A stretch of DNA of 37,635 bases from Holosporales bacterium (GTDB taxonomy: Bacteria > Pseudomonadota > Alphaproteobacteria > UBA3830 > JAIRMZ01), in contig JAITIJ010000032.1 of assembly GCA_031279495.1 (NCBI GenBank), positions 1-37,635 on the forward strand, in the 5' to 3' direction. Position 1 is the stretch's first letter; the number at the start of each line of letters is the position of its first letter. Below are positions 4,565 through 35,593 of this stretch, in pieces. The notes beneath the pieces were generated by a model that worked only from the letters and a program-made list of their open reading frames with translations, was not told where the DNA came from and searched no databases. A program made the position numbers and the translations under genes.

Positions 4565-5840
4565 TGCTGATATCCAAAAATCTTAAGCGTTTGAGCTTGA
4601 TGTATTCTTTGAGAAGATCCGACAAATAATGAGGGCGTTGAATTAAACGTTTACCGAGTATGTCGTCCATTTCCGGAGTATCGGCATCAGGCTTGATCGA
4701 TCTTTTCCTTACAACAAGGTGCAGAACATATCGCAGACTTAGTCGTGCTACTCGCAAAACATCGACAAGACTTAATTTGGCCTCTTCTGGAAAGAACTTA
4801 ATCAAAACATCATGATAGAAAAGCCGGGCAACGGCTTCCTGATCTGCCGTAAGGATCCTCTCCCCTTTCTCGGTAAAGTTCTTATTTACAGAAGCCGTGT
4901 TTTTTCGCTTTCCAGAGAACCCTACCCAAGGATTTCCATAGAAAGTCGCTTGTTTTAGCGTAGGATCATACCGAACACCTAAAAAGGCACATACATGCGC
5001 CATAACAGCATCAAATTCCTTGTGTAATCCAGGCAGATAAAGAAGATAAATACTTTTTGGGATTTTCCACATATCATAAAGAGCGGATACCCTATGCGTC
5101 CGAACATCTTCTCTGTTGACGAGACTAGATTCGTAGGATTCACGCATGGAAGCGATCAATTGCGCATTTTTTACCGGGTCTTTTTGAAGAATGGCTAATT
5201 TTCTCTTTGATGCTCTTTCCGAACTGAGAGCCGATTCCAGAGTCTCTACAGGATTCCTCAGTAGAGTAATAAAGCTCGCCTTTGGAAAGTCTTGAAAGAA
5301 TTTTTTATGCTGTCTAAAGACGTCTTTTCGTGGCCCTTTCCGAGTAGTTGTCATGACGTGATGGCTATGAAGATGAAGAAGAATGAGCTTTAGATTCCTC
5401 AATGATCTATTGCATATTAGAAAAAAAGCGATATGGATCAGCAGAAAGTATTCTTTGCGTCCGCAATCACCATATAATTGACATAACTGGAAAAAGATTC
5501 TGCAGAACGCGCTCTTATCAATATTTCTCAGACTCTGTGGAGGATCTTCACAAGCAGCGGGCCTGAAAACCCCCCTCGCGAGATCGAACAATCCAGAAGA
5601 GTTCTTTTCAAAGAGTTCCAGGTATTCTTCTGGAGAAAATTTCTCTTCTTCGTTTGCGTAAAAATCATATACGTTTGTCTCTATAGGCAAGCTAGAAACT
5701 TCTTCGTGTTGATCAAAGAGTCCTTTGAAAAAAGTAGACCCCGCTCTTCCATAAGGCGTCATAACTGCGCACTGCACTCGAGAAAGAGCGTCAACTAACT
5801 CCTCACGCGTTAAATTTAGATCTTCAAGCATTCCAGACAT
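4533..5840 (-). CDS. Sulfotransferase-fold protein (binds a 3'-phosphonucleotide donor); acceptor and transferred group unknown
   Basis: 435-aa ORF. It has an N-terminal P-loop-like 5'-phosphosulfate-binding motif 'YGRAGSTFFKGLF' and a 3'-phosphate-binding type motif 'LLRNPVETLES'. It overlaps both operon neighbours. Confidence 0.6.
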   Translation of the reverse strand: MSGMLEDLNLTREELVDALSRVQCAVMTPYGRAGSTFFKGLFDQHEEVSSLPIETNVYDFYANEEEKFSPEEYLELFEKNSSGLFDLARGVFRPAACEDPPQSLRNIDKSAFCRIFFQLCQLYGDCGRKEYFLLIHIAFFLICNRSLRNLKLILLHLHSHHVMTTTRKGPRKDVFRQHKKFFQDFPKASFITLLRNPVETLESALSSERASKRKLAILQKDPVKNAQLIASMRESYESSLVNREDVRTHRVSALYDMWKIPKSIYLLYLPGLHKEFDAVMAHVCAFLGVRYDPTLKQATFYGNPWVGFSGKRKNTASVNKNFTEKGERILTADQEAVARLFYHDVLIKFFPEEAKLSLVDVLRVARLSLRYVLHLVVRKRSIKPDADTPEMDDILGKRLIQRPHYLSDLLKEYIKLKRLRFLDISNAVQYKSPDA

Positions 5841-6394: not shown

Positions 6395-6781
6395 CTAGCA
6401 AGAGGTCGTTAGTTGCCCCGGAAAGAGAATCTTAATAATACCTCCAAACGCGCACATCAATTGAGAATCATTGGTTAAGGCAGGAGAAGCTCCTACAAGA
6501 ACAACGGGATTTCCTACAATCCATGGCGGAATAAGGGCAAGAGTGCACGGCATTGGTGTCAGCACTCCAAAGGCCGCTGCGGTAGCGGCAGCCGTTGCGG
6601 GGTTCGCCAAACTTGTACATACCCCAAAAGGAGAAACATTCAAGAAAGGAACAGAGTCCATAATCGTTCCCATCGGCGGACCACCGCAAAAAGCACAAGA
6701 AGTGGGCAGAAAATTCAAAGGCGTTGGCACCATTCCCATTGAACATTTGCATAAAGCACCCTGAACGACAGGAAGACCCAT
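6395..6781 (-). CDS. DUF4280 (PAAR-like) domain protein
   Basis: Near-textbook DUF4280 pattern: 'VVQGALCKCSMG', 'PFGVCTSLANPATAAATAAAFGVLTPMPC', 'PPW', 'LMCAFGGIIKI..PGQ'. The start is set to ATG at 6781; the track uses TTG at 6787. Confidence 0.8.
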   Translation of the reverse strand: MGLPVVQGALCKCSMGMVPTPLNFLPTSCAFCGGPPMGTIMDSVPFLNVSPFGVCTSLANPATAAATAAAFGVLTPMPCTLALIPPWIVGNPVVLVGASPALTNDSQLMCAFGGIIKILFPGQLTTSC

Positions 6782-6783
6782 GT

Positions 6784-7503
6784 TCAACCATTGTCCTGTG
6801 GAGGACAGACGTTGCCCTTACGATCAAACTGTACACTGTTTTGAAGCTTTCCAGCGTTGAAATAGGCGACTTCCTTGATGCCTCCATCATCGTAGTATTG
6901 GCGTCTCTCTCCCTCCAAAAGATCCGCATGATAGAGAGCTTCTTCCAGCGGCTGACAATTGGGATAGTATGTGACGCTCGAGCCTTCTAATTTACCAGCA
7001 ACATAGGAAGAAGTGCGAACAATAGTCCCACCGTCTCTGAAGAAAGTAAACATTCCTTCAAGTTTTCCGGATACATAAAACGCCTCAGCAGCCACCTCTC
7101 CAGTGGGATTGAAATATGTTGCTTTCCCCTCTTGCAAGCCGTCAACATAAAGCACCTCTAACGTCTTACAGCCATCTTTATAAAAAGTGGCGAGTCCATT
7201 AAGGGTATTGTTTGCGTAAGTTAGGGTTTGTGTAACGTTACCATCTTCAGCATAAATAAAAGCGCTGCCAGAAAGTACCCCACCAACAAACATCAGTTTC
7301 TGTGCGCATCCTCCAGATGAAAAAAACACCTCAGTTGGTCCATCCAGACATCCCTCTCTGTAAGTCATTTTTTGAAGGAGCGTTCCCTGCGTATCGCAGA
7401 TATCCACAACACCATTTAAAGAGGCCTGCTCTTGATCCGTATCTGCTTGCACAGAAGAGAGGTCAGCCATCGAAGAATCTCTCACAAATCTGTAAGAAAA
7501 CAA
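6784..7503 (-). CDS. MORN-variant repeat protein (YwqK-like repeat architecture)
   Basis: 239-aa ORF built from about 23-aa repeats of the form 'G.L.G....YY..G.......Y..GKL.G'. Its stop lies 2 nt before the DUF4280 start. Confidence 0.6.
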   Translation of the reverse strand: MFSYRFVRDSSMADLSSVQADTDQEQASLNGVVDICDTQGTLLQKMTYREGCLDGPTEVFFSSGGCAQKLMFVGGVLSGSAFIYAEDGNVTQTLTYANNTLNGLATFYKDGCKTLEVLYVDGLQEGKATYFNPTGEVAAEAFYVSGKLEGMFTFFRDGGTIVRTSSYVAGKLEGSSVTYYPNCQPLEEALYHADLLEGERRQYYDDGGIKEVAYFNAGKLQNSVQFDRKGNVCPPQDNG

Positions 7504-7761
7504 GAGATATTTTATTTAAATAAAACCAATGTAGCAATACCTGTTGCCGTGGTGCGACGAACAACAAAAATCTAGTTGTTTTTTATTGATTCTTTCGCAT
7601 CCCTCCTCTATCAAGGAATATGCCACGTAAGTGACGAGGGTGAAAAGGTAAAGGTGGGATTTTTTCAGAATTATCTCTGTTCAGAACCCTTGTAGGATCA
7701 TAGTGCGCGGAAGATGATAGGGTCTTTAGCGAAATCCGGAAAGGCGTTGAATATAAGGTAT

Positions 7762-8265
7762 ATGAAAAGACTCAGTAAACGAGAAAGGATATGTATGCGT
7801 AGTAACTTGTTTGTATCTGTGGCGCTATTTGCGTGTACGGCTATGTATGTCAATGTAGTATTAGGACAAGAGGATTCTGCAACTGCTACGGTCCCGACGG
7901 CAGAGGCAGCAGCAATTCCTGGGGCAGGTGCAGAGCCTCCAAGAGAGGTACCAGCAGCAGAGCCTACTGAGGTTCCTGAAAGCACAGCAGTAGGTTCTGC
8001 ATCTCCTACATCTGAAGAAAAGAACATGTTGGCGGCACCAGAACCAGAGAAGAAAGGTCGCCACAAGAGAAGGCGGCATAAAAAGCGGCATCGTCAGACA
8101 GATCCGGGGTCGCTGCCAACCCCAGAGACACTAGCAGTAGATCCTGCATCTGGAAAGGATCCATCGGCGACACCAGAACCCGAGAAGAAGGGTCGCCACA
8201 AGAGAAGGCGGCATCGTCACGAGGAATCCATCACACCGGCTGTGGAATCTCCTAGCCCAAATTAA
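7762..8265 (+). CDS. Secreted Pro/Glu/Ala-rich protein with two copies of a basic 'PEPEKKGRHKRRRH' motif
   Basis: The signal-peptide-like N-terminus is 'MKRLSKRERICMRSNLFVSVALFACTAMYVNVVLGQ'. The start could be ATG 7762 or ATG 7795, and both have AAGG-type RBS. A stem-loop follows at 8281-8314. Confidence 0.55.
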   Translation: MKRLSKRERICMRSNLFVSVALFACTAMYVNVVLGQEDSATATVPTAEAAAIPGAGAEPPREVPAAEPTEVPESTAVGSASPTSEEKNMLAAPEPEKKGRHKRRRHKKRHRQTDPGSLPTPETLAVDPASGKDPSATPEPEKKGRHKRRRHRHEESITPAVESPSPN

Positions 8266-9096: not shown

Positions 9097-9421
9097 TTGA
9101 GAAGTGAGAAAGAACAATTGCTCTTTAAGGCAGAAAATGCCCCATTCTTCCTAGGAGGAAAGGAGAGCAATAAAAAAACAAAGAACACAAAGAGAAACAT
9201 GAAAAGCAGGAAGGAGAAACATGAAAAGCAGGAAGGAGAAACAGGGAAAGATGCTTGGGAAAAAACCAGAAGAAAAGGAGAAAAAGCAATTGCTCCTTGA
9301 GGTAGAGCATTCTTCCTCTTCTCACCAAGAAAAAATGGGGTGGAGGATAGACACCGCAGATCTACTGGTGTCTGAAGACCCCGGCGCTGTAAAAGAAAAA
9401 GACCCACCCCTTTGCAAATAA
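9097..9421 (+). pseudogene. Small Lys/Glu-rich ORF split by a 22-bp tandem duplication
   Basis: ORFs 9097-9300 and 9221-9421 are in different frames. Removing one 22-bp repeat unit joins them into one reading frame of about 100 aa. The start is TTG and the composition is low-complexity, so coding status is uncertain. Confidence 0.25.
9192..9246 (+). repeat. 22-bp direct tandem repeat, 2.5 copies (GAGAAACATGAAAAGCAGGAAG)
   Basis: Exact copies lie at 9192-9213 and 9214-9235, with a partial third copy. They sit in a purine-rich tract. Confidence 0.9.
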
Positions 9422-23402: not shown

Positions 23403-24108
23403 CTGTTGTAACAGTCTGCACATCATCGTTATCTTCAAGTGCATCGATCAACTTCAACAACGTGCGCCCCGCTTCTGTCGAAACTGGAACGAGCACTTTT
23501 GGTCTCCAAAGAGGACGCGCCGCTTGAGGTTCACCAAGTTTCGTTGCGCAAAAATCGCGGACAATGCCAAGCCCTTCCAAGGCGCAAAACACTTCGAATC
23601 CGTCTTCTGTTTCTAAAACATCGTCTGCACCTGCTTCAAGAGCTACCTCGAAGACAGCTTCCATGGAAAGGCCCTCTTTAGAGAAGACAAGATATCCGAG
23701 GTGGTCAAATTTATAGCTGACGCTGTTTGTCTCTCCAATTGATCCACCGAATTTATTGAAATAAGAGCGGACTTCTGCGGAAGTGCGATTGCGATTATCG
23801 GTTAGACTTTCAATGATCAGTGCGCTACCGGCAGGTCCATATCCTTCGTATCGCATCTCTTGATACGTCGTTGTGTCGTCATTCCCAAGCGCTTTTTTAA
23901 TCGCACGTTCGACTGTGTCTTTGGGCATGTTGGCTTCTCGTGCCGAAATCAAAGCTGTGCGCAACTGCGGATTGCTTTCTTTGTCTGCTCCACTTGCTTT
24001 AACAGCTACAGTAATCTCGCGAATCACCTTGGTGAAAATTTTAGCGCGCTTTGCATCCTGCGCTCCTTTGCGATACATGATGTTTTTGAACTGAGAATGC
24101 CCCGACAT
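23359..24108 (-). CDS. yebC: YebC/PmpR family transcriptional regulator
   Basis: 'MSGHSQFKNIMYRKGAQDAKRAKIFTK' is the canonical YebC N-terminus. The start is set to ATG 24108. Confidence 0.9.
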   Translation of the reverse strand: MSGHSQFKNIMYRKGAQDAKRAKIFTKVIREITVAVKASGADKESNPQLRTALISAREANMPKDTVERAIKKALGNDDTTTYQEMRYEGYGPAGSALIIESLTDNRNRTSAEVRSYFNKFGGSIGETNSVSYKFDHLGYLVFSKEGLSMEAVFEVALEAGADDVLETEDGFEVFCALEGLGIVRDFCATKLGEPQAARPLWRPKVLVPVSTEAGRTLLKLIDALEDNDDVQTVTTDANFPQELLCDLDG

Positions 24109-24319
24109 CCGTCTTTCCCCTTTATCAAACAGCACAACAGCGGAGAATAAGCCGATTATGGCGCAAAAAAGGCCTTAGAAAAAGATGTATAAGAAAGGGT
24201 CGAGGCATTAGATCATTCGACTTTGGTGCAAGCGACGTTTTGAAAAGCGTTGACTTCTTCTAACAACCCTATAAAATTATCTTCGATTTTACGGATCTTC
24301 ACGAAATGATGGAAAGAGT

Positions 24320-24934
24320 ATGACGAAAAGAGTTCAGGCAAAGTACAAAGTTGATCGTCGTCTTGGGGTGAATCTGTGGGGGCGTGCAAAAAGTCCCGTG
24401 AATCGTCGCGAGTATGGTCCTGGTCAACATGGAACGCATCGTAAGAAGCCAACAGATTATGGCGTTCAACTTGCTGCAAAACAGAAACTGCGTTTTTACT
24501 ATGGAAATATTGGAGAACGTCAATTCCGCAATCTTTACCAAGAGGCTTCTCGGCTGCGCGGAGATACGAGTGAGAATATTGTTTCTCTTCTAGAGCGCCG
24601 TTTAGATGCGGTGGTCTATCGCATGAAATTTGCGGTAACTGTTTTTGCCGCTCGTCAGTTAGTTAATCATGGACATGTTTTTGTCAATGGGAAAAGGGTA
24701 AACACCTGCTCTTATCGCGTAAAGGAAGGTGATACAATCGAAATTGCGCCTACAATGAAGGAAAATGCGATTTTATTGCTGGCTTTAGAGTCAAATGAGC
24801 GCGATATCCCAGATTATATGGAAGTCACTCCGAAGGAATGCAAAGGGGTGTTCACACGTGTGCCGAAACTAATGGATATTCCTTATCCTATAGTCATGGA
24901 GCCCAATCTCGTTGTTGAATTCTATTCTCGTTAG
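24320..24934 (+). CDS. rpsD: 30S ribosomal protein S4
   Basis: '[15 protein letters not shown]', '[16 protein letters not shown]' and the S4 RNA-binding domain 'RLDAVVYR...ARQLVNHGH'. Confidence 0.95.
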
Positions 24935-24947
24935 GGGAAAGAGTTTC

Positions 24948-25433
24948 ATGGAACAGCTCTTATCAATGTGGAATACGTGTGTTCTCTTCGTTCGCAATGT
25001 GTTGAGCATTGCGCAGCGTATTTTTGCTTGGCAGCCTCCTTCTAGAAACGTCCTAGAATGTGGCCGGTATTATACACAGTGTTTTAAAGCGCGCATCCAC
25101 GCTAAATTAAAGCCGTACTCTAAGGTTGACGCCTTTATCACTGGTACAATGACGATGATGACGGTAACGCTCATTTTGCTGGTTCAGCAGACGAACTACT
25201 ATGAGCACGATGTGTGCAATTTGACAAATGATCGTATAGACTTGGTAAAACGCATTGCGAAAGAAATGAAAACGACAGAAGCTTTGCGCACGACTATTGA
25301 GCAGTTGGAAACGCAAAACACCTCTCTGACGCAACAGGTTAAGCGACTTGAGGATCAAAACACTTCCCTTTCTCAACAAGCACGAAACGCGGCAGATGCG
25401 CAGGATACAGGCTCTGTGCCCCCCCCCCCCTAG
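24948..25433 (+). CDS. Hypothetical membrane/coiled-coil protein ending in a poly-Pro tail encoded by a C12 tract
   Basis: ATG 24948 follows a GGGGAAAGAG RBS. The protein contains the internal repeat 'LETQNTSLTQQVKRLEDQNTSLSQQ'. The stop codon directly follows the C12 tract. Confidence 0.45.
   Translation: MEQLLSMWNTCVLFVRNVLSIAQRIFAWQPPSRNVLECGRYYTQCFKARIHAKLKPYSKVDAFITGTMTMMTVTLILLVQQTNYYEHDVCNLTNDRIDLVKRIAKEMKTTEALRTTIEQLETQNTSLTQQVKRLEDQNTSLSQQARNAADAQDTGSVPPPP
25419..25430 (+). repeat. Homopolymeric C12 tract
   Basis: I counted 12 consecutive C directly in the sequence. It lies immediately 5' of the TAG stop at 25431-25433. Confidence 0.95.
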
Positions 25434-25710
25434 GAGAGGCCTCTATCGCGCTAGAAAGAAGTTCTAGAGAATGATTTGTAAGGAAGAACGTTCTTTTCTC
25501 TCATCACAAATGCAGTTCCAGGTGTTTTGAGGCAGGTTTGAGTCGTCTTGATAACGTGCTTGGCTAAGAGCAAGAGTCTTGACGCATTGTGGTTTTCGTC
25601 AAGAACAGATGAAGGCTCTATCTTTCCACCTCGGATTAGAGATAAGATCCTGCAAGGCTTTGTCCTCCTAAGGGTGTGCCTTTGTTTTTTGTTAGAAAGC
25701 GCGAATTTTA

Positions 25711-27537
25711 ATGTGCGGTATCTGGTTCTCTGTTGGGTGGGGCAATCTGCCCTCTTCTGTTATTGATGTTGTGAAGCATCGCGGGCCAGACGGTCGAGGA
25801 TGGCAAGAGTTTTCGTCTGACCAAGGTCCGGTCATATTGGCGCACAGGCGGTTAGCGATTATTGATCTGAGCTCTTCTGGTTATCAGCCCATGTCGTCTT
25901 GTGATAAGCGGCTTTGGATTACCTTTAATGGCGAGGTTTATAACTACATCGAAATCCGGAAAGAGCTAGAAAATCTCGGATGTTCGTTTATTTCTCAGAC
26001 AGACACAGAGGTGGTTTTGCAAGCCTATGAGGTGTGGGGTCCAGCCTGTCTGCACCGTTTTAATGGCATGTTTGCTTTTGTAATTTGGAACGATCAAGAG
26101 AAAACAGCTTTTGTTGCGCGTGATCGTTTTGGCGTGAAACCTCTTTATGTGCACCAGGATGGCCAGAAGATTGCTTTTGCTTCGGAGATCAAGCAATTCT
26201 ACGAGATTCCTGGATTTCACGCTCACATTCATGCTGGAAATGCCCACGATTTTCTTGCACATGGTATGACTGATCACAATGAGGGAACCTTTATCGAGGA
26301 AGTGTTTCGTGTGCCTTTTGGTGGAGCGGGGGTGGTAGCCTCCGGAACGTTTGAGCCTTACATTTGGTACACGCTTCCTACACAAGAGATTAGCCGTCCT
26401 TTAGAAGAAGCTGCTGCTTTGTTTCGCGAGATTTTTCTGGATGCAGTACGCTTGCGCTTCCGCTCTGATGTGCGCGTTGGAGCGCTTTTGTCAGGAGGGC
26501 TTGATAGCTCGGCTATTGTTTGTGCTGCACGAGAGTTTTTCCCGCCTTTTGACACGTTTAGCGTATGCTATCCTGGCGAAAGTGTTGATGAGAGTGTTTA
26601 TATTGATGCTGTCATACAAGAGAAAAACACCATAGCGCATAAAATTTCGCCAGGGACAAATACGCTGCGGGATGAAATAGATAAACTGCTTTACCATCAA
26701 GAGGAACCTTTTGGCGGAACGAGTCTTTTGGCTGAGTGGAGCGTTTTTAAACTTGCTCATGAGCAAGGCGTTTCCGTAACGCTTGGTGGACAGGGACCAG
26801 ATGAACAATTGGCAGGTTATCATCCAATGTTTGGTGGATTTTACGGGGAGCTTATTCGTACAGGACGTTTCATACGCCTTATAAAAGAAGGATGCGCACG
26901 CGTACAAAAACATCGCGTCCCTCTACGTCGTCTTTTGGCGGACACGTTATCTATGTCTTTTCCGGAAATCCATTCTCGTGTTTTGTCGCTTTTGCATCCG
27001 CGCGGTCCATGTTCGTGGCTCAAATTAGATCCTCAGCAAAAAACCAGGTGGTTTACGGACTTTATTGCTGTTGACTCGCACAAAACCCTTTCAGACACTT
27101 GTCGGTGGTACATGAAGACAAATTTGCAAGCTCTTGTGAAACATGAAGATCGCGACAGTATGGCCTTTGGAATAGAATCTCGTTTGCCTTTTTTGGATTA
27201 CCGGCTTGTTGAGCTTATAGCTTCTTTACCAGCACATTATAGAATTCGCAACGGACAGACAAAGTACATTTTACGCGACGCTTTGCGCGGCATCCTCATC
27301 GAATCAGTTCGAACGCGTCAGAGCAAAATCGGATTCGCGACTCCAGAAGACAAATGGTTTACGAGAGATTTCCGTTCCGATTTGGATAAGGGAGTTGCTT
27401 CTTTTGCCGTAAATAACCGTAGAATCATTGATGAGAAAGAGTTAAAGTCAGCTTCCAGTGGCGATACGCACTTAGCCTGGCGTGTATATATTTTCGATAA
27501 ATGGATGCGTCAGTGGAAGGTAAAGTGGGCGCAGTGA
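25711..27537 (+). CDS. Asparagine synthetase (glutamine-hydrolysing) family amidotransferase, glycan-cluster type
   Basis: 608 aa. 'MCGI' N-terminal nucleophile Cys2, 'HRGPDG' and PP-loop 'LSGGLDSS'. It is the first gene of the glycan island. Confidence 0.85.
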   Translation: MCGIWFSVGWGNLPSSVIDVVKHRGPDGRGWQEFSSDQGPVILAHRRLAIIDLSSSGYQPMSSCDKRLWITFNGEVYNYIEIRKELENLGCSFISQTDTEVVLQAYEVWGPACLHRFNGMFAFVIWNDQEKTAFVARDRFGVKPLYVHQDGQKIAFASEIKQFYEIPGFHAHIHAGNAHDFLAHGMTDHNEGTFIEEVFRVPFGGAGVVASGTFEPYIWYTLPTQEISRPLEEAAALFREIFLDAVRLRFRSDVRVGALLSGGLDSSAIVCAAREFFPPFDTFSVCYPGESVDESVYIDAVIQEKNTIAHKISPGTNTLRDEIDKLLYHQEEPFGGTSLLAEWSVFKLAHEQGVSVTLGGQGPDEQLAGYHPMFGGFYGELIRTGRFIRLIKEGCARVQKHRVPLRRLLADTLSMSFPEIHSRVLSLLHPRGPCSWLKLDPQQKTRWFTDFIAVDSHKTLSDTCRWYMKTNLQALVKHEDRDSMAFGIESRLPFLDYRLVELIASLPAHYRIRNGQTKYILRDALRGILIESVRTRQSKIGFATPEDKWFTRDFRSDLDKGVASFAVNNRRIIDEKELKSASSGDTHLAWRVYIFDKWMRQWKVKWAQ

Positions 27538-27571
27538 ATCGCGTTGATTTTGAAAGTTATGAAAATCTCCA

Positions 27572-28174
27572 ATGATTGTTATCGTAGATTACGGAGTGGG
27601 AAACTTAGGATCTGTTGCGTCTATGCTCCGTCGCGCTGGAGGAGATCCTGTCGTAAGCTGTGATCCAGATGTGATTTCGCGGGCAGATAAATTGATTTTG
27701 CCTGGTGTGGGAGCATTTGATAGAGCTATGAATGGATTGGAAGAGCGCCATCTTCTTCCTGCTTTGCAAGAGGTCGTCGCGCGAGAAACACCGGTGCTAG
27801 GCATTTGCTTGGGGGCTCAAATCCTTGGAAGGAAAAGTGAGGAGGGTATATGCGCCGGCTTAGGGTGGCTAGATATGGAAGTGAAGAAGTTTTCTTCTAA
27901 GGATCTCCGTGTTCCTCACATGGGGTGGAACACGGTTACTCCAGCTAAAAATTCCTTGTTGTTTGACGCTATTTCTACCGAAGAGCAGCGTTTCTATTTC
28001 GTTCACTCTTACTACATGCAATGCCGTAATGAAGAGAATATTCTAGCTATCTCTTCTTATGGAAAAGACTTCGCTTGCGCCGTAAGTTGTGGCCATATCT
28101 ACGGAGTGCAATTTCATCCAGAAAAAAGTCATCGCTTCGGGATGAATTTATTTAAAAGATTTCTCGATGTTTAG
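27572..28174 (+). CDS. HisH-like glutamine amidotransferase subunit (WbuY type)
   Basis: 'IVIVDYGVGNLGSV', 'GICLGAQIL' and 'VQFHPEKS'. It is paired with a HisF-like gene and an N-acetyl sugar amidotransferase, not with his genes. Confidence 0.85.
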   Translation: MIVIVDYGVGNLGSVASMLRRAGGDPVVSCDPDVISRADKLILPGVGAFDRAMNGLEERHLLPALQEVVARETPVLGICLGAQILGRKSEEGICAGLGWLDMEVKKFSSKDLRVPHMGWNTVTPAKNSLLFDAISTEEQRFYFVHSYYMQCRNEENILAISSYGKDFACAVSCGHIYGVQFHPEKSHRFGMNLFKRFLDV

Positions 28175-28934
28175 AAGGATTATTCCTGTGCTTCTTCTTT
28201 CTGACGGTGGTCTTGTAAAATCAAAAAATTTCCAAGATTGTAGGTACGTTGGTGATGCACTTAATGCTGTACGTATTTTTAGCGAGAAAGAGGCTGATGA
28301 GCTAGTGTTTTTGGATATAGAGGCGACACGCCGTGGCGCATCTCCAGATATAGAAATGATCAAGGCTATTGCTTCAGAAGCTTACATGCCCTTTGCTTAC
28401 GGAGGGGGAGTGCGAACACTTCAACAAGCTGAAAATATTCTTCGAAATGGTGCAGAAAAGATTGTTTTGAATGATGCTATTTTTTCAATACCACATATTG
28501 TTGAAGAAATGACGAAGGAGTTTGGTTCTCAAGCTGTTGTTGCGTGTATCGACGTGAAGAGGATCATTTTTGGCAAATATGCGATTTTTTCTTATAAGGA
28601 TAGGACGCTACGTAAACCAGATCTTGTCACCTCTATTTCTCTATGCGAGAACCTTGGATGCGGAGAAATTATCGTGCAGAGCGTTGATCACGATGGCCAA
28701 AGGACCGGATATGACGTACCCTCCATTCAGCGCACACGAAAAGCGACCTCACTCCCACTTGTCGCTTTGGGGGGCGCTCGGAGCGTAGAGGATTTTCGTG
28801 CCGCCTTTCAAGCGGGAGCAGATGCAGTTGCGGCAGGATCTATGTTTATTTTCTGGGGAAAGTATCAAGCGGTTCTTATTAATTACCCAACCAGTCAAGA
28901 AATAAGGAGTATTCTACATGCAGATATGCACTAA
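28167..28934 (+). CDS. HisF-like cyclase subunit (WbuZ type)
   Basis: 'RIIPVLLL.DGGLVKS', 'ADELVFLDI' and 'GADAVAAGSMF'. It overlaps hisH-like by 8 nt. Confidence 0.85.
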   Translation: MFRRIIPVLLLSDGGLVKSKNFQDCRYVGDALNAVRIFSEKEADELVFLDIEATRRGASPDIEMIKAIASEAYMPFAYGGGVRTLQQAENILRNGAEKIVLNDAIFSIPHIVEEMTKEFGSQAVVACIDVKRIIFGKYAIFSYKDRTLRKPDLVTSISLCENLGCGEIIVQSVDHDGQRTGYDVPSIQRTRKATSLPLVALGGARSVEDFRAAFQAGADAVAAGSMFIFWGKYQAVLINYPTSQEIRSILHADMH

Positions 28935-30093
28935 GTGCGTCATGGACTCCACAGCAGAAGAGATTACGTTTGACGCGCAAGGCGTGTGTAGCTTCTGCCG
29001 ACATTTTGAAGAAAAAGTTCGCCCCTATTGGCACCCAGGAACGCAAGAAAGTCTGGCGCAACTTGAGAATCTAGTCGCCAAGATAAAATGCTCTCAGCGC
29101 AGCAGTGAATACGATGCCATTATTGGTCTTAGCGGAGGTGTGGATAGCTCTTATTTGGCTTGCTGGGCTGTAAAATCCGCCGGCTTGCGGTTGTTAGCGG
29201 TTCATGTCGATGGGGGATGGAACTCAGAACTCGCTGTCCAGAACATTGAGCAGATTGTTAAAAAATTAAACATAGATCTACATACATACGTCGTAAATTG
29301 GCAAGCTATGAAAGAAGTGCAACTAGCTTTTTTTAAGGCAGGCGTGGCAAACCAGGATACACCTCAAGACCATGCGTTTTCCAGTGCGCTCTACAGGTTT
29401 GCGGTGGACAGCAAAATAAAATATATCTTGAGTGGAAGTAATATCGCAACGGAATCCTGTCTTCCTGTTTCTTGGGGGCATAACGCAGGAGATGTAGATC
29501 AAATCTTGGATATTTGCAGGACCTACAAAGCACAATGTGTCAACAAATTCCCTCTGGAATCTTTTTTCGGGCGTTGTATTTATTTCCCATATATTCGAAA
29601 AATGGAAGTTGTTACTCCCCTCAATTATTTGGATTACAGCAAGGAAGAAGCTATTCAGACGTTAGAAAAGGAACTTGGCTGGAAGTATTATGGTGGGAAA
29701 CACTATGAATCTCGGTTTACGAGATTTTTCCAAAGTTACTGGCTTCCTAAAAAATTTGGTTTCGATAAACGAAAAGCACATTTTTCAAGTCTTATTTTAT
29801 CTGGACAAATGACGCGAGATTTAGCTTTGGAAGAGCTCCAAAAGCCCTCTTTCGATCAGTCTAGTATAGAAAGCGATATTGAATACGTTGCTAAAAAGCT
29901 TGGAATAAGCAAGCAGGAGTTTTTAAAGCTTATGGAAGAACCGAATCGTATTTATAAGGACTTCAGAAACAATGATTGGAAAAGGCGCTATTTGCTGAAA
30001 CCATTTAATTGTGCGTCCACAGCTTTAAGAGAACCACAGCGGGTCTTTGGGTGGCTTGGGATAAAGAAGACGTCGTGCGGCGCAAAGAAATAA
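28918..30093 (+). CDS. N-acetyl sugar amidotransferase (WbuX/WbpG/PseA family, PP-loop)
   Basis: N-terminal Cys cluster 'CTKCVMDS......GVCSFCRHF' and PP-loop 'LSGGVDSS'. An AAGGAG RBS lies before ATG 28918. Confidence 0.8.
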   Translation: MQICTKCVMDSTAEEITFDAQGVCSFCRHFEEKVRPYWHPGTQESLAQLENLVAKIKCSQRSSEYDAIIGLSGGVDSSYLACWAVKSAGLRLLAVHVDGGWNSELAVQNIEQIVKKLNIDLHTYVVNWQAMKEVQLAFFKAGVANQDTPQDHAFSSALYRFAVDSKIKYILSGSNIATESCLPVSWGHNAGDVDQILDICRTYKAQCVNKFPLESFFGRCIYFPYIRKMEVVTPLNYLDYSKEEAIQTLEKELGWKYYGGKHYESRFTRFFQSYWLPKKFGFDKRKAHFSSLILSGQMTRDLALEELQKPSFDQSSIESDIEYVAKKLGISKQEFLKLMEEPNRIYKDFRNNDWKRRYLLKPFNCASTALREPQRVFGWLGIKKTSCGAKK

Positions 30094-30112
30094 ATGCGAG
30101 CGTGAAAAGCAA

Positions 30113-30790
30113 ATGACACGCATTTTATGTCTAGCGCCGCACACTGACGATGCTGAGCTTGGTGCCGGAGGGACTCTTGCGCGATTTGTCGAATGGGGGG
30201 GGGGGGCGCATGTCTATGTGGCAGCGTTTTCTCCTTGTCGGCAGTCTTTACGTGAAAGTGGATTGCCGGAGGATGCCTTAGAAAAGGAATTTCACGCATC
30301 GATGGATCTTTTAGGGGTTCATGGTCGTGCGATATACGATTTTCCAGTACGAGAATTTCCCACACATCGGCAAGAGATTCTTGAAGAAATGGTGCGTTTA
30401 CGAAAAGACACGAAGCCGGATCTTGTTTTAATCCCGTCTCCTGGAGATGTTCATCAAGATCATCACGTGATCCATCAGGAGGCCTTACGTTGTTTCAAAT
30501 GCGCCAATGTATGGTGTTATGAGCAGCCTTGGAACCAAAAAACAACAACGTGTACGATGTACATGCCGCTTACCGAGGCGCATCTGCAGAAAAAATGGGC
30601 AGCCATCGCGCAATACAAAAGCCAGATGACATTAAAGCGATCTTACTGTACGTTGGAGTTTGTTGCAGGATTGGCGCGCGTTCGTGGTGTACAAGCCGGT
30701 TGTGCCTTTGCAGAGGCTTTTGAGGCGGTGAGGCATGTGTGGGCACCCTCACCGGAGGTGCAAAAAATAGGATCTGAGGGGAGATTGTGA
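30113..30790 (+). CDS. PIG-L / LmbE family N-acetyl-sugar deacetylase (contains G12 tract)
   Basis: 'ILCLAPHTDDAELGAGGTL' and 'HQDHH' metal-site motifs. The G12 tract at 30195-30206 encodes 'WGGGA' and is in frame in this sequence. Confidence 0.75.
   Translation: MTRILCLAPHTDDAELGAGGTLARFVEWGGGAHVYVAAFSPCRQSLRESGLPEDALEKEFHASMDLLGVHGRAIYDFPVREFPTHRQEILEEMVRLRKDTKPDLVLIPSPGDVHQDHHVIHQEALRCFKCANVWCYEQPWNQKTTTCTMYMPLTEAHLQKKWAAIAQYKSQMTLKRSYCTLEFVAGLARVRGVQAGCAFAEAFEAVRHVWAPSPEVQKIGSEGRL
30195..30206 (+). repeat. Homopolymeric G12 tract inside the PIG-L deacetylase gene
   Basis: I counted 12 consecutive G directly in the sequence. Confidence 0.95.
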
Positions 30791-31548
30791 GTCTAAGAGA
30801 GAAGTTGTTTGATTGTACTTTGTCGTTGCACGCGTGGGCTGCTAAGAGAAGTGGGCTAAATGTGCTTCATTGCCAGCGGGACGATTGCACCCCTATGAAG
30901 GCCATGAGGTACGATAAATACGTAAAAACGTCCAGAGATCTGTACGATAAATTCGGAGATTACTCTCGGTATCGTATCCTCGAGCTTGTTGCTGAGCAAA
31001 TATACGCGAAGAAATTGGAAGGAAGTGTTGCTGAGGTTGGTGTTTACCTTGGTGATCTTGCTTTCATAATTAACAGTTGCTTCCCTGATCGAAAATTGTT
31101 TCTGTACGACACCTTTGAGGGATTTCACGAGGCGGATGTTTCTTATGATTTAGAGCACAGCTGTTCTCCAAAATGGTTTTTTACGCATAACGATAATTTC
31201 AAGCCACCAGAATCCGTGACAGATCCCATTGCTCTTGTAAGATCAAAGATGCGATTTCCTGAGCAATGCATTTTCAGAAAAGGATATTTTCCGGAAACCG
31301 CCTCTGCTGAGGAGGAAGAGAAGTTCGTTTTTGTATCGCTGGACGCGGATTTGTACAAACCTACGCGAGCGGGCCTCGAATTTTTCTACCCGAGATTATC
31401 GGAAGGAGGGTATATGTTCCTCCACGATTACAATCGTGATGGATTGCTTGGGGTAAAGCAAGCTGTACAGGATGTCGAAGAAATCCTCGGCCCCATCAAG
31501 AAATGTCCTATTTCCGATCGAGGAGGAACATTGATCGTGATGAAGTGA
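30787..31548 (+). CDS. TylF/MycF-like class I SAM-dependent (O-)methyltransferase
   Basis: 253 aa. 'GSVAEVGVYLGD' SAM-binding loop, 'LFLYDTFEGF' and 'FVSLDADLY..T' motifs typical of macrocin-O-methyltransferase-like proteins. The GTG start overlaps the upstream TGA as GTGA. Confidence 0.65.
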   Translation: MSLREKLFDCTLSLHAWAAKRSGLNVLHCQRDDCTPMKAMRYDKYVKTSRDLYDKFGDYSRYRILELVAEQIYAKKLEGSVAEVGVYLGDLAFIINSCFPDRKLFLYDTFEGFHEADVSYDLEHSCSPKWFFTHNDNFKPPESVTDPIALVRSKMRFPEQCIFRKGYFPETASAEEEEKFVFVSLDADLYKPTRAGLEFFYPRLSEGGYMFLHDYNRDGLLGVKQAVQDVEEILGPIKKCPISDRGGTLIVMK

Positions 31549-31736
31549 GAGATTTTGGGAGCTAAAATGCAAGAATGGTTGCCTATATGTGCGCGAATGA
31601 GAGAAGGCTAGAGCATATTGAAGGCTTTACCAAGCTCTGGAGAGGACTGTTGATAAGAAGCGAAGCAAAGTCATCTTGTCGCGTGATTATTAATGGAAGC
31701 CTTAAAAAAGGATAGCTCTATGGGGGGATAAGCGTC

Positions 31737-32417
31737 TTGGAAAGTGTGACTGTTTATGTTCTAACAGAAAGGCCTGAAAGGTTTGATAAAGTTGCTTCTA
31801 TTGGTAGACAGAAACGACCAGAACTAGAATTTATTCATTGTCCGAGCATTCGGGAATTGCTCCAGTTTGCTTCTCTCTTCAAAGAGAGAGATGTGTTGTT
31901 ATCCTACTGTTTCCACGAGCTTATTCCGGTATCTGTTTTTAAGTTTTTCAAGACTGCATTGAATATTCATGTCGCGCCACCTAGTCGTCCGGGTTTAGAC
32001 GGACATTTTTATGCAGCATACGAAGGTGAGGTGACAGAATACGGGGCGACAACGCACATTATGAACGCAAAATTTGACGATGGAGAGATTTTGGATGTAG
32101 AGCTTGTTCCTGTCGATAAAAACGCTAGTGGTTGGGATTTAGCGGCCGTTGCTCGCGCTTGCTCGATTAAGCTGATAGAACGCCTTTTTGAGAATGGATT
32201 CAAGAAAAATCCAATTATCGGCAATATATCCTGGGGAGGCAAAAAAACGAAGAGGACAGATTTTTTGTCAGTTGCATGCAGAATTCTCCCAACAGATAGT
32301 ACAGAGGAAGTAAAACGTAAATTTCACGCTTTCCAGGAAGGGGTTCCTTTTAAGAATCTCTATATTGATTTGCATGGGCTCAGGTTTCGCTTTGAAAAAG
32401 TTATTGAAGACGGTTAG
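31737..32417 (+). CDS. Formyltransferase-like domain protein (paralog 1)
   Basis: 226 aa with a TTG start. 'LNIHVAPPSRPG' and 'THIM....DDGEIL' resemble the formyl_trans_N catalytic region. It is clearly paralogous to the N-terminal half of ORF 33816-34928. Confidence 0.6.
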   Translation: MESVTVYVLTERPERFDKVASIGRQKRPELEFIHCPSIRELLQFASLFKERDVLLSYCFHELIPVSVFKFFKTALNIHVAPPSRPGLDGHFYAAYEGEVTEYGATTHIMNAKFDDGEILDVELVPVDKNASGWDLAAVARACSIKLIERLFENGFKKNPIIGNISWGGKKTKRTDFLSVACRILPTDSTEEVKRKFHAFQEGVPFKNLYIDLHGLRFRFEKVIEDG

Positions 32418-32440
32418 CCAGTGAAACGAGAAATGACCCC

Positions 32441-33433
32441 TTACAGTAACAAATTCACTGCCTCTATTACTTTGTTTTGGTCGACTAATGTCAGTGAGGG
32501 GTAGATAGGAATCGATATAGAGCCATTAAAAGCTCTTACTGCGTTCGGATATAGGACATCTGGATATCCGAGGAGTCTGTGAATAAGTCGATCCACACCG
32601 CGCCGCACAACAATGGCTCGCTCGAAAAATCCTCTGCAAAGGCTTTCAAAGGATTTTTTATTTTGAATGAGAGGAAATCGGAAAAAGACGTTACCCGTTT
32701 TTTCGATAAACTTCGTATATTCTGATGGTATACAATTGAAATATCTTTCCGCTATTTCTTGTCTCCTCTGCTTAATATCTTCGTAGTAAAGGAACTGCTC
32801 CTTTAGGATAGTCAAATTTAGATGAGAGGGGCAACCGCCGAAACGGTAGCCGAAAAAATCCTCTTCTATATAATTTCTAAATTTAATCTCTGTGTTGCAA
32901 ATTGAAAAAGCCCCACCTCCACCAGCATGCAAAAGCTTTGTCGGACCGAATGAATACAGGATAAAATCGCCATGTTCTCTATCTGGAACACTCAAGACAT
33001 CGCAACTTTGACAAAGGTCGTTTATCAGCACAACGCCAGGTATCCTGAATTGCGAACAATCTAAAAACGTACCAAATAAATTGACAAGAACAACGACTTT
33101 AGTATTTTTACTTACCTTGCTCTTTACCGTTTCTGGGGATACATGCCAGTATGTGCCAATGTCACATAGGATAGGTTTGCATCCTGCGTTCACTACTGCC
33201 AAATAAAGTGACCGGCACACGTACGTGGGAAGGATGACTTTGTCTTGAGGAGACAAACTCAACCCCTTTAGAATCCAATGAAGCGCGTGTGTTCCGCTTT
33301 GTGTGAAATGCAAGTTTTTCCGGTGGAATTTGGCTTCAAAGACGCTTCTGACGCACTCTTCCATGGAAGCTGAAACAAAAAAAACCACTTTCGACGCAAG
33401 AGCGGACCTTATCAGCAAGAGACGGAGGAACAA
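32441..33433 (-). CDS. DegT/DnrJ/EryC1/StrS family sugar aminotransferase, 5' region frameshifted at an A8/T8 tract
   Basis: 'SGTHALHW' and 'YSFGPTKLLHAGGGGA' (PLP-Lys region). The expected N-terminus 'MILHSQPFVPPSLADKVRSCVESGFF' lies in another frame from ATG 33455 and joins if one T is removed from the run at 33377-33384. Confidence 0.75.
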   Translation of the reverse strand: MFLRLLLIRSALASKVVFFVSASMEECVRSVFEAKFHRKNLHFTQSGTHALHWILKGLSLSPQDKVILPTYVCRSLYLAVVNAGCKPILCDIGTYWHVSPETVKSKVSKNTKVVVLVNLFGTFLDCSQFRIPGVVLINDLCQSCDVLSVPDREHGDFILYSFGPTKLLHAGGGGAFSICNTEIKFRNYIEEDFFGYRFGGCPSHLNLTILKEQFLYYEDIKQRRQEIAERYFNCIPSEYTKFIEKTGNVFFRFPLIQNKKSFESLCRGFFERAIVVRRGVDRLIHRLLGYPDVLYPNAVRAFNGSISIPIYPSLTLVDQNKVIEAVNLLL

Positions 33434-33678
33434 ACGGCTGAGAATGAAGTATCATCAACACAAAACCCAAACCTCACCTTTTCAAGAGGAGGACTACTAT
33501 CTTAGTGTACTACCCTTTAGGCCCCTCTTGCTATATCACGCTTACGTTGCAAACAGAATTATTTTCGTATTTTTGTGGGAGGTGGAGTATTTCTAACGGG
33601 AACAGGGGCGTATTGTCGCATATAGGCTTGTTAGTGGAAGCTTTCAATGGTCGGAATTCTGTTGTGCAACATTATACG

Positions 33679-33808
33679 ATACAAAAGCCAGATGACATTA
33701 AAGCGATCTTACTGTACGTTGGAGTTTGTTGAAGGATTGGCGCGTGTTCGTTGTGCCCAAGCTGGTTGCATCTTTGCAGAGGCTTTTGAGGTAATTAGGC
33801 ATGTGTGG
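33679..33808 (+). pseudogene. Duplicated 3' fragment of the PIG-L deacetylase gene
   Basis: By hand alignment these 130 nt match 30613-30742 with 13 mismatches and no indels. The first 53 nt are identical. The fragment would encode 'YKSQMTLKRSYCTLEFVEGLARVRCAQAGCIFAEAFEVIRHVW'. Confidence 0.85.
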
Positions 33809-33815
33809 TGACACT

Positions 33816-34928
33816 ATGTTAGATATTCAGACGCTTTATGTTCTAACCAAGAGAACGGAAATTTTCGATAGAATTTTCGCCATTGGGAAGGAGAAATCTC
33901 CAGGATTAGTTCTGGTCCACTGTGCAAATGTTCGGCAATTATGTGAATATGTACCTCTTTTAAAAGAAAATGACATGTTGTTGTCTTTCGGTCACGGAGA
34001 TATTGTTCCTCCTTCTGTTTTGTCGTTATTTAAAACGGCAATTAATGTTCATCCAGCGTCTCCCGCCTATCCCGGACGAGACGCGCATTTTTACGCGGCT
34101 TATGACGGTGTAACAGAGTATGGGGCGACAGCGCATGTCATGACCCCAAAAGTCGATGATGGGGAGATACTGGATATCGAACTGGTTTCAGTGAAGAAAG
34201 ATTCAAGCGGGATGGAATTGTTGGAGATCGCAAATTCTTGCGCTTTTGCTTTAATGGAGCGTCTATTTATGTGCGAGTTTAACAAAGACATAAGAAAGAA
34301 AGGGATCTCTTGGGGTGAACGGAAAACAAAGAGAGCAGACTTACCGGTTACTTGTAAGATTCTTTCAACAGATTCTGCGGAAGAAGTCGAGCGTAAGTTT
34401 CGGGCTTTTCAGAAAGGGTCTCCTTTCAAGAATCTCTATATTGACGTATACGGTTTTAGATTTCGCTTTGAAGACATTGTTAGTTGTCGTGAGAGGGGGG
34501 GGGGGGTAATTGTCAAGATGGCGCATAATTTTCTTACAAAAGCCTTTCCATTCGTAGAAAAAGTAGAAGAAACTATTGAAGCAGAACCTCTGTGGTTGCG
34601 AGAGAATTTCTTTATCGATCTTCCTGAAAAGTGGAACTTATCTCTTTCTTTTTTGGTTGAGGGGATAGTAGCAGGATTCGCGATTGTCTCTCAGAAAACA
34701 CCTTTTTGTGCGCATTTGCACCGTCTTTGTGTTTTGCCTTATTACAGAAACCAAGGCATTGCCGGCGATTTAATTTCTTCCTTGAAGAATCTCTGCAAAA
34801 ATTCTTACAAATTCTTGACTTTATCCGCTTACGATAACAAAGAAAATCTTCTCAAATTTTATCAAAAAAGAGGGTTCTTTCCAATGCGTGAGGAGGAAAA
34901 GCAAACGCTCATGATTTGTCATTTATGA
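33816..34928 (+). CDS. Formyltransferase-like domain (paralog 2) fused to a GNAT N-acetyltransferase domain across a G12 tract
   Basis: The N-terminal half aligns with ORF 31737-32417. The C-terminal half has GNAT motif A 'YRNQGIAGDL' and 'KFYQKRGF'. The track start at 33801 lies inside the duplicated deacetylase fragment; ATG 33816 aligns with the start of paralog 1. Confidence 0.7.
   Translation: MLDIQTLYVLTKRTEIFDRIFAIGKEKSPGLVLVHCANVRQLCEYVPLLKENDMLLSFGHGDIVPPSVLSLFKTAINVHPASPAYPGRDAHFYAAYDGVTEYGATAHVMTPKVDDGEILDIELVSVKKDSSGMELLEIANSCAFALMERLFMCEFNKDIRKKGISWGERKTKRADLPVTCKILSTDSAEEVERKFRAFQKGSPFKNLYIDVYGFRFRFEDIVSCRERGGGVIVKMAHNFLTKAFPFVEKVEETIEAEPLWLRENFFIDLPEKWNLSLSFLVEGIVAGFAIVSQKTPFCAHLHRLCVLPYYRNQGIAGDLISSLKNLCKNSYKFLTLSAYDNKENLLKFYQKRGFFPMREEEKQTLMICHL
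34495..34506 (+). repeat. Homopolymeric G12 tract at the formyltransferase-GNAT domain junction
   Basis: I counted 12 consecutive G directly in the sequence. They encode 'RGGGV'. Confidence 0.95.
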
Positions 34929-35593
34929 AAACGATTGCTATTCATCAGCCGAATTTTTTGCCGTGGAGGGGATATTTTCAGAAAATCCATCAGGCCGATG
35001 TTTTTGTGTTCCTGGATGATGTGCAGATTTCGTTACGACATAACGCAATAACCCACAGAACTCGTTCTTTGCGGAATGGAACACCCCAATGGCTTACAAT
35101 GCCAGTTATAAGAGCAGAAAAGATTTTGGATGTTCAGATTGGAGATAGAGCACGTTTGTGCAAATTAGAAAGAAAAGTCCGTGAGTGGTACTGCAAAGCA
35201 CCGTATTTTAAAACGATTTTTCCGATTCTTGAGCGCGTATTTGCGCATGAAACAGACTCCTTAGCCGAGTTTAATATCAATGCGATCACACTTTTGTGCC
35301 ATCATTTGAATATACACACGCCGCTGATGCGCTCTAGCACGCTCAACATTTCTTCCACAAAGCAAGAACGCATTCTCGACATTGTGACAGCTTTAGGTGG
35401 AGACCGATATTTATCCGGCAAAGGTGCTATAGATTATCAGTCTGAAGATGCGTTCAAAGACCGCAACATTACCCTTGAATATATTTCCTATAACCTTGCG
35501 CCTTATCCACAATTTAATAGCAACACATTTGTTCCTGGCCTTTCTGTTATTGATCTTCTCATGAACTGCGGATTACCTCCTCCACATCTATAG
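34925..35593 (+). CDS. WbqC family protein
   Basis: 'MKTIAIHQPNFLPWRGYFQKI...DVFVFLDDVQ' is the WbqC-family N-terminus. ATG 34925 overlaps the upstream TGA as ATGA. Confidence 0.8.
   Translation: MKTIAIHQPNFLPWRGYFQKIHQADVFVFLDDVQISLRHNAITHRTRSLRNGTPQWLTMPVIRAEKILDVQIGDRARLCKLERKVREWYCKAPYFKTIFPILERVFAHETDSLAEFNINAITLLCHHLNIHTPLMRSSTLNISSTKQERILDIVTALGGDRYLSGKGAIDYQSEDAFKDRNITLEYISYNLAPYPQFNSNTFVPGLSVIDLLMNCGLPPPHL

Follow-up and report, generated by a model that had tools for sequence, protein, structure and literature searches.

Poly-G/C runs in and beside a sugar-modification island of a Holosporales bacterium as candidate slipped-strand contingency loci

Contig JAITIJ010000032.1 of a Holosporales bacterium (assembly GCA_031279495.1) carries three uninterrupted 12-nt runs of G or C, one at the end of a gene for a membrane-anchored coiled-coil protein and two in the sugar-modification island that follows it. 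The question raised by this locus is whether the runs act as switches of the genes in which they lie or have arisen from genome decay, from expression-level recoding or peptide selection, or from sequencing error. The whole contig (37,635 bp, 44% G+C) was analysed and is referred to here as the window; the coordinates of its main features are collected in Table 1. The initial annotation, made from the DNA letters and a list of open reading frames (ORFs), had read the three runs and an A8/T8 tract in a fourth gene together as the architecture of phase-variable surface-glycan loci. Overall, the analysis showed that the G/C runs are probably slipped-strand contingency loci.

The coordinates of the three G/C runs and of the A8/T8 tract were found to be exact, and the next longest G/C homopolymer in the contig had 6 nt. 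A first-order Markov model gave approximately 0.0003 expected G/C runs of at least 12 nt against the three observed, and none was produced in 200 simulations, which bears out the initial annotation's view that runs of this length are improbable by chance. In dinucleotide shuffles, G9 on either strand was expected 0.02 times per shuffle and the observed count was reached in 0 of 100 shuffles. A/T runs of at least 8 nt showed no enrichment under the Markov model, with 4 observed and 7.3 expected. All three G/C runs of the window were inside ORFs and none was found in the inspected intergenic DNA. Selection on amino acids does not explain pure runs, because GGG accounts for just 20% of the codons for Gly, and CCC for 15% of those for Pro. 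In addition, no sigma-70-like site overlapped or flanked any run, which ruled out transcriptional phase variation by promoter spacing. Other repeat classes were also ruled out as switches since Tandem Repeats Finder showed no other simple sequence repeat (SSR) arrays in the island.

For comparison, sequences of related organisms were used. RpsD of the window was 85%, 82% and 75% identical to that of the Holosporales metagenome-assembled genomes (MAGs) Ct408_bin51, Gx481_bin16 and Cd354_bin124 (L081, L082 and L083), respectively. These MAGs are from the hindgut of the lower termites Calcaritermes temnocephalus, Glyptotermes sp. and Cryptotermes dudleyi and were obtained from NovaSeq 6000 2x150 reads assembled with MEGAHIT at k-mers 21-119 (PMC11257099). 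The window probably originates from a termite-gut sample like those of the related MAGs. Two further relatives were L241, a 2.7-kb contig of Joint Genome Institute (JGI) sample 3300042596 with the closest PIG-L ortholog, and L242, from the same sample and an NCBI Holosporales MAG, with an identical sequence in Logan run SRR14710884.

The second run lies near the 5' end of a gene for a sugar de-N-acetylase of the PIG-L/LmbE family. Membership of the family was supported by the PF02585 score (62.6 bits, gathering cutoff 28.2), by the metal and catalytic residues H10, D12, D13, H114, D116 and H117, which were invariant in the homolog alignment, and by an AlphaFold model with a Rossmann-like fold and a predicted local distance difference test score (pLDDT) of 91. 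In silico, G12 gave a protein of 225 aa and G11 or G13 a product of 46-56 aa. The closest homolog among 5.8 billion proteins searched was that of L241 (74% identity, other sample), which carried G16 at the codon matching the G12 of the window, and both runs were uninterrupted and in frame. In both proteins the run encoded a 2-residue glycine insertion relative to 12 other homologs, none of which had it, and the AlphaFold model placed the run in a surface loop between the first helix (13-27) and the second strand (33-38). Outside the clade the best matches were approximately 55% identical (Balneolaceae, Paenibacillus); a scan of a single JGI metagenome with PIG-L produced no contig of the same species, with best matches again at approximately 55% identity.

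Upstream of the intact PIG-L gene, L241 carried remnants of three neighbouring genes (positions 1-898): a frameshifted hisH, a hisF2 with an internal deletion and the first 54 codons of wbuX. In L241 the acetamidino module encoded by these genes is in the process of loss, with the run-bearing deacetylase kept. L241 also had a C14 run (2608-2621) ten codons into a last gene, at the end of the contig. In one of the other frames this gene leads into a hydrophobic stretch resembling a signal peptide, KRHVRVLIGVCFFMPLALLHL, and the frame as assembled may thus be OFF.

The third run lies at the junction of genes for a formyltransferase-like protein and a GNAT N-acetyltransferase. The initial annotation had placed the runs in or at the ends of coding regions; this third run does lie at such an end, where one gene meets the next, and in its assembled length it joins into one ORF two genes that a relative keeps apart. 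In L242 the orthologs were separate genes for proteins of 238 aa (formyltransferase-like) and 136 aa (GNAT), with C8 at the junction, and changing C8 to C7 or C10 in silico produced a fusion there as well. The fused state assembled in the window would thus be one slip away from the canonical architecture, and the GNAT protein is predicted to be translated separately whenever the run length is not a multiple of three. In the window the run falls where the relative has the Shine-Dalgarno-like AGGAAGGA. As a side observation, the formyltransferase-like family was found to be tiny, with only five of 5.8 billion proteins matching at E<=1e-10, two of which were the window copies. Judged by eye, both paralogs retain the N-x-H and Asp motifs known from formyltransferases.

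The first run, C12, differs in its setting. The initial annotation had assigned all runs to glycan genes, which holds for the two G12 runs and not for C12, found in the gene for the membrane coiled-coil protein that separates rpsD from the island. The database call for this gene is 161 aa, from which a start near 24948 was deduced, and Pfam produced weak coiled-coil matches only. A change of C12 by one base in either direction in silico swapped the C-terminal tail (protein of 173, 184 or 187 aa). A homolog search with the protein returned only itself; an alignment-based genome scan showed orthologs only in the three termite-gut Holosporales MAGs, with the invariant transmembrane motif PYSK..F..G...TL..L..Q. 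The ortholog of Ct408_bin51 carried a G14 in mid-gene and was out of frame at 156 aa, and with G12 or G15 its product became 552-553 aa in silico. The ortholog of Gx481_bin16 had a G17 near the 3' end, while the G8 of Cd354_bin124 lay 160 bp beyond the gene on its downstream side. A G/C run was therefore present in or beside the coiled-coil gene in all four genomes that carry it, at differing positions and on different strands. Rfam gave no match anywhere in the window, which ruled out an RNA element in the gap of 277 bp that follows C12.

Recurrence of such runs was also seen across the clade. Seven G/C runs of at least 12 nt were present in 82.5 kb (the window and 44.9 kb of relatives), and the long runs of the clade were limited to three gene loci and one neighbouring gene. 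The comparison set consisted of homologous or syntenic loci of other bacteria, namely the neighbourhoods of PIG-L, of rpsD and of the Cj1418-like kinase gene described below (4.95 Mb), and contained 6 runs of at least 9 nt, only one of which had at least 12. Runs of at least 12 nt thus occurred at 8.5 per 100 kb in the clade compared to 0.02 in the comparison loci, and long G/C runs overall were approximately 70-fold commoner in the clade.

The tract in the fourth gene, for a DegT/DnrJ/EryC1-family sugar aminotransferase, showed a different picture. The frameshift that the initial annotation had described is real: removal of one T produced a protein of 337 aa that aligned to DegT-family enzymes of solved structure (7b0d_A, E 3e-15) with no interruption at the site and kept the lysine context for pyridoxal phosphate. 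The run itself is statistically ordinary, since A/T runs are rarer than the chance expectation given above, and the T8 corresponds to a GGT-TTT-TTT (Gly-Phe-Phe) coding run with one extra T. It was therefore ruled out as an evolved tract and carries no weight here in favour of an evolved switch; a phase-OFF state, an assembly error or a fixed pseudogene could each account for it.

Several features by which SSR contingency loci are recognised were found for the G/C runs, including a run of at least 8 nt within an ORF, a change of the product in silico upon a change of one unit, over-representation, and a repeat of differing length at an orthologous site (G12/G16 in PIG-L and G12/C8 at the junction). 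In the proposed mechanism, single G:C pairs would frequently be gained or lost through slipped-strand mispairing as the DNA is replicated. The run near the 5' end of PIG-L would then be a translational ON/OFF switch, while the junction run would toggle between two separate enzymes, as arranged in the relative, and the fused 375-aa protein assembled here. The run of the coiled-coil gene would swap a C-terminal tail in the window and turn the whole gene OFF in a relative; this OFF state, in Ct408_bin51, was the only one found and belongs to another species. The affected glycan genes are predicted to remove or replace N-acyl groups of amino sugars, and switching would therefore produce differences from cell to cell in a surface glycan epitope (O-antigen, capsule or flagellin). 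Such switching would be frequent and reversible, with escape from recognition by phages, hosts or protists as a possible benefit. Taken together, the contingency-locus reading of the initial annotation is partly supported and is strengthened by G12/G16 at the same codon, recurrence in orthologs, the 70-fold enrichment and breaks of an independent assembly at the runs (see below), though C12 lies outside the glycan genes and T8 drops out. The chances appear even that the Holosporales clade of kalotermitid guts maintains a phase-variable set of its own, in which G/C runs are kept or re-invented in PIG-L, at the formyltransferase-like/GNAT junction and in the coiled-coil gene.

The alternative that survives best is a non-adaptive by-product of genome decay, in which weak mismatch repair in a host-restricted lineage would allow slippage to expand short G/C seeds under relaxed selection. 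The runs would then mark dispensable genes on their way to pseudogenes, as mutation hot spots and not as selected switches. Gene remnants beside the intact PIG-L in the island of L241, a DegT gene frameshifted at an ordinary T run and the out-of-frame coiled-coil gene of Ct408_bin51 would all be expected from decay, and independent expansions would give runs on either strand and at differing positions in orthologs. However, two organisms whose PIG-L proteins are only 74% identical both keep the run in frame, without interruption and at one and the same codon. The three window runs all fall in ORFs and none in the inspected intergenic DNA, the same three loci were struck repeatedly instead of random dispensable DNA, and AT-biased genomes (38-44% GC) are expected to erode G/C runs. 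Decay as the explanation is therefore considered unlikely.

The runs could also serve expression-level recoding, with slippage of RNA polymerase or ribosome giving two products per gene, such as fused and unfused formyltransferase-like/GNAT, from unchanged DNA, or could reflect selection for flexible Gly/Pro linkers. The PIG-L run encodes a loop, and the junction run is at the linker position of the fusion, in which one frame fuses the genes in both species, and over the Shine-Dalgarno-like AGGAAGGA position of the relative. This explanation is nevertheless very unlikely, as pure GGG and CCC runs are not expected at 20% and 15% codon usage, a Gly-coding G12 and a Pro-coding C8 at the junction conserve no particular peptide, and the 12 other PIG-L homologs have no insertion. 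Moreover, known transcriptional slippage sites are mostly A/T runs.

Contigs of an independent assembly, Logan run SRR14710901, were 100% identical to parts of the window. Contig L330 corresponded to window positions 23476-25430 and ended at the last C of C12, with the whole run included, while L332 (34507-37625) began immediately after the third run and included none of its G12, a start that plain branching of a de Bruijn graph through length polymorphism would not predict. L331 (31629-33279) did not adjoin a run and ended in ordinary sequence. C12 is thus present in the reads, and the k-mer graph was ambiguous or thin exactly at the run edges. Look-ups of exact products in the gene index did not find PIG-L, TylF (two versions) or the TTG-start WbqC; the missing intact PIG-L product fits a break of the Logan assembly at the second run as well. 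The breaks at two run edges fit length heterogeneity and equally homopolymer-related error, and do not amount to proof. Among the genes examined, DegT alone appeared frameshifted, which argues that the assembly is not riddled with homopolymer errors. Chimeric assembly at the runs was ruled out, as their flanks are continuous homologous sequence and 12 bases are far below the k-mers used for the related MAGs. The initial annotation had kept assembly artefacts open as an explanation of the tracts; the same C12 in the Logan assembly and the G16 at the same PIG-L codon in another sample contradict this, and exact run lengths alone remain open to possible errors of one base. An artefact of two-colour Illumina poly-G calls or of assembler behaviour, as suggested by the NovaSeq 6000 and MEGAHIT origin of the related MAGs and probably of the window, by the length of exactly 12 in all three runs, by the Logan breaks at run edges and by a fused formyltransferase-like/GNAT gene and a DegT frameshift that are each one base from the canonical architecture, is extremely improbable given that the gene sequence on either side of each run is continuous and homologous and stays in frame, that the PIG-L codon carries a run in an organism from a different sample, that a second assembler reproduced C12, that no chimeric join is expected from a 12-base repeat below k-mers of 21-119, and that dark-cycle poly-G extends to read ends and would not restore a gene frame.

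Several points weigh against the runs as contingency loci. The sample is small, with seven runs in approximately 82 kb, and the length of exactly 12 in all three window runs is unexplained. C12 affects a short C-terminal tail only and would be a weak switch. The island of the relative L241 is decaying, which fits relaxed selection equally well as adaptive switching. The Logan breaks at the runs could also be explained by homopolymer sequencing error or thin coverage, and the other contigs of that run were short too. If the window shares the NovaSeq/MEGAHIT origin, its consensus lengths could be off by one, and an off-by-one length alone could make the fused G12 state or the OFF state of Ct408_bin51.

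The island spans 25711-35593 and its genes encode enzymes of nucleotide-sugar tailoring (Table 1). Three consecutive genes (27572-30093), each above its NCBIfam cutoff, form an acetamidino-sugar module of the WbuX/WbuY/WbuZ type. No glycosyltransferase or flippase was found on the contig, and the target glycan of the island may be O-antigen, capsule or flagellin. The GC content (%) was 43.8% in the island and 44.9% in the core, with 40.8% and 39.6% at third codon positions. Recent horizontal import of the island is therefore unsupported, and the horizontal acquisition considered in the initial annotation finds no support in this composition or in the homologs from outside Holosporales, which lack the run. 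Both observations indicate that the switch architecture arose within this Holosporales lineage and did not come from outside.

Table 1. Positions in the window of the coiled-coil gene, the genes of the sugar-modification island and the homopolymer runs
Feature	Position	Strand	Remarks
Membrane-anchored coiled-coil protein gene	24912..25433	+	Longest ORF 173 aa, directly after rpsD; clade-specific
C12 run	25419..25430	+	Final four codons PPPP, TAG immediately after
Glutamine-dependent asparagine-synthase-like amidotransferase	25711..27537	+	First gene of island; Asn_synthase 6e-65; TIGR01536 407 bits
HisH-like glutaminase subunit (WbuY-type)	27572..28174	+	TIGR01855 239 bits, cutoff 105.4
AglZ/HisF2-family acetamidino-modification protein (WbuZ-like)	28167..28934	+	NF038364 311.9 bits, cutoff 310
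WbuX-family N-acetyl sugar amidotransferase	28918..30093	+	TIGR03573 295.7 bits, cutoff 203.2
PIG-L/LmbE-family sugar de-N-acetylase	30113..30790	+	In frame (ON) as assembled; Pfam PIG-L 6.8e-17
G12 run in PIG-L	30195..30206	+	Codons 28-32 (W-G-G-G-A), 83 nt from start codon
TylF-family O-methyltransferase	30787..31548	+	Pfam TylF 1.8e-17
Formyltransferase-like protein 1	31737..32417	+	Pfam Formyl_trans_N; paralog of N-terminal part of 33801-34928, 55% identical
DegT/DnrJ/EryC1-family sugar aminotransferase	32441..33455	-	+1 frameshift: first 26 codons from 33455, rest 33433-32441
T8 run at DegT frameshift (plus-strand A8)	33377..33384	-	T7 or T10 restores frame
Formyltransferase-like protein 2	33801..34509	+	With G11, TAA at 34507-34509, 235 aa; with G13, 21 nt further, 242 aa
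G12 run at formyltransferase-like/GNAT junction	34495..34506	+	Fuses both into 375-aa ORF 33801-34928 as assembled
GNAT N-acetyltransferase	34518..34928	+	Pfam Acetyltransf_1; own ATG 11 nt after run
WbqC-family protein	34916..35593	+	Last gene of island; called start 34925; Pfam WbqC 1.5e-63; exact 222-aa product on Logan contig L332

A second gene set on the contig (203-6304, minus strand) is of the type that makes O-methyl phosphoramidate (MeOPN), so that the MeOPN-like genes named in the initial annotation are real. An L-glutamine kinase (2258-4564, minus strand) was identified with 956.6 bits for NF004508 (cutoff 501), a family which we take to be of the Cj1418 type. Its nearest relatives were in an alphaproteobacterial MAG (57% identity), followed by Pseudomonas and Azospirillum (approximately 52%), and a genome scan with this kinase produced no match in the Holosporales MAGs. 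The APS-kinase-like (adenylylsulfate kinase-like) protein scored 139 bits for the PRK05541 subfamily (cutoff 127), the peptidase-C26 hydrolase scored 125 bits for the gamma-glutamyl-CDP-amidate hydrolase model NF045546 (cutoff 250) and the nucleotidyltransferase of the set had generic matches only. In C. jejuni the MeOPN transferase and methyltransferases are phase-variable; here a 435-aa protein (4533-5840, minus strand) showed a weak sulfotransferase-like match and its gene has no run longer than a G6. A CysQ-like phosphatase was also found within the set.

Other genes on the contig were ruvCAB, rpsD, gap, genes for a histidine kinase and a DUF4280 protein, a gene beside ruvCAB taken as yebC from its sequence, and a flagellar block with flgH, flgA, flgG, flgF and fliM. 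The cumulative GC skew had its minimum near 24200, at the divergent junction between yebC-like/ruvCAB (minus strand) and rpsD with the island (plus strand), which may be no more than an effect of gene orientation or may indicate a strand switch related to replication. After the DUF4280 protein (98.8 bits), presumably PAAR-like, comes a MORN-repeat protein similar to an adhesin of the LIC20035 family (6395-7503, minus strand), and the two may be a secreted effector pair. An ORF at 7714-8265 had no family match, a signal-like N-terminus and PEPEKKGRHKRRRH motifs repeated twice, and a 22-nt tandem repeat of 2.7 copies (9192-9250) was located in a stretch with no convincing gene. The window had no tRNA genes, which ruled out a tRNA-flanked island.

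Phase variation driven by homopolymers is characteristic of pathogens that are adapted to a host and confronted with immune systems or phages. A recent review of Holosporales (PMC11909080) contains none of the terms homopolymer, phase variation and slipped. If the clade does maintain a phase-variable set of its own, this would be the first set of contingency loci described in Holosporales, and it would imply that strong selection has long favoured stochastic switching at the surface in a symbiont lineage usually seen as simply losing functions. Switching by the runs would point to fluctuating selection on surface glycans by protist or termite hosts, phages or grazing, which would change the picture of the lifestyle, and would mark a few genes, that of the coiled-coil membrane protein among them, as likely factors in host interaction. 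In practical terms, short-read assemblies break at the runs and gene calls change with them between fused, split and truncated forms, so MAG annotations need caution with run lengths.

The best-known counterpart is Campylobacter, in which poly-G/C tracts cause phase variation of capsule, lipooligosaccharide and flagellin-glycosylation loci of C. jejuni such as Cj1295 (PMC3068675), as part of a wider phasome (PMC6321876). As in Campylobacter, the runs of the window are in or at the ends of sugar-modifying ORFs of a moderately AT-rich genome, one of them placed as a 5' ON/OFF switch, and an acetamidino-sugar module and an MeOPN-type phosphoramidate set are found on one contig. Another likeness is that run length merges or splits adjacent ORFs, as in pairs such as Cj1325/26 of the C. 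jejuni NCTC 11168 annotation. In contrast, the organism belongs to the Holosporales (Alphaproteobacteria) of termite guts, the clade runs are longer at 12-17 bases (typical C. jejuni runs are G8-G11) and switching is predicted here from sequence. The genes are also not derived from Campylobacter, given the approximately 55% identity of PIG-L to Balneolaceae and Paenibacillus and the alphaproteobacterial and Pseudomonas relatives of the kinase.

The initial annotation had not known tract-driven variation to be typical of alphaproteobacteria, for which Bartonella supplies a precedent (PMC11466379). The badE adhesin gene of Bartonella krasnovii has A9 and G9 tracts near its 5' end, with frameshifts and ON/OFF states among isolates; its SSRs are conserved across species and switching was shown by passage (PMC11466379). 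Both are host-associated alphaproteobacteria with mononucleotide SSRs, but the badE tracts have 9-10 bases, are mostly A/T and lie in an adhesin gene, whereas the runs described here are of G/C, have 12 bases, lie mainly in glycan-modification genes and are supported by comparative evidence.

In Neisseria and Haemophilus, glycosyltransferase genes such as gonococcal pgtA undergo poly-G phase variation (PMC2193922). The likeness is a G homopolymer inside the ORF of a glycan enzyme that sets a sugar modification, as predicted here. For Neisseria and Haemophilus it is documented that the run is present or absent depending on the strain and how this relates to phenotype, while the present case comes from other taxa and another niche and is read from DNA.

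Finally, in Buchnera and Blochmannia, frameshifts at poly(A) tracts are rescued by polymerase slippage. Homopolymers that interrupt genes in host-restricted, decaying genomes are common to those symbionts and to the window, and the T8 of DegT could be of the same type. The tracts of Buchnera and Blochmannia are of A/T, follow mutational bias and affect many genes, whereas the runs of this Holosporales clade are of G/C, go against the base composition and are confined to few loci.

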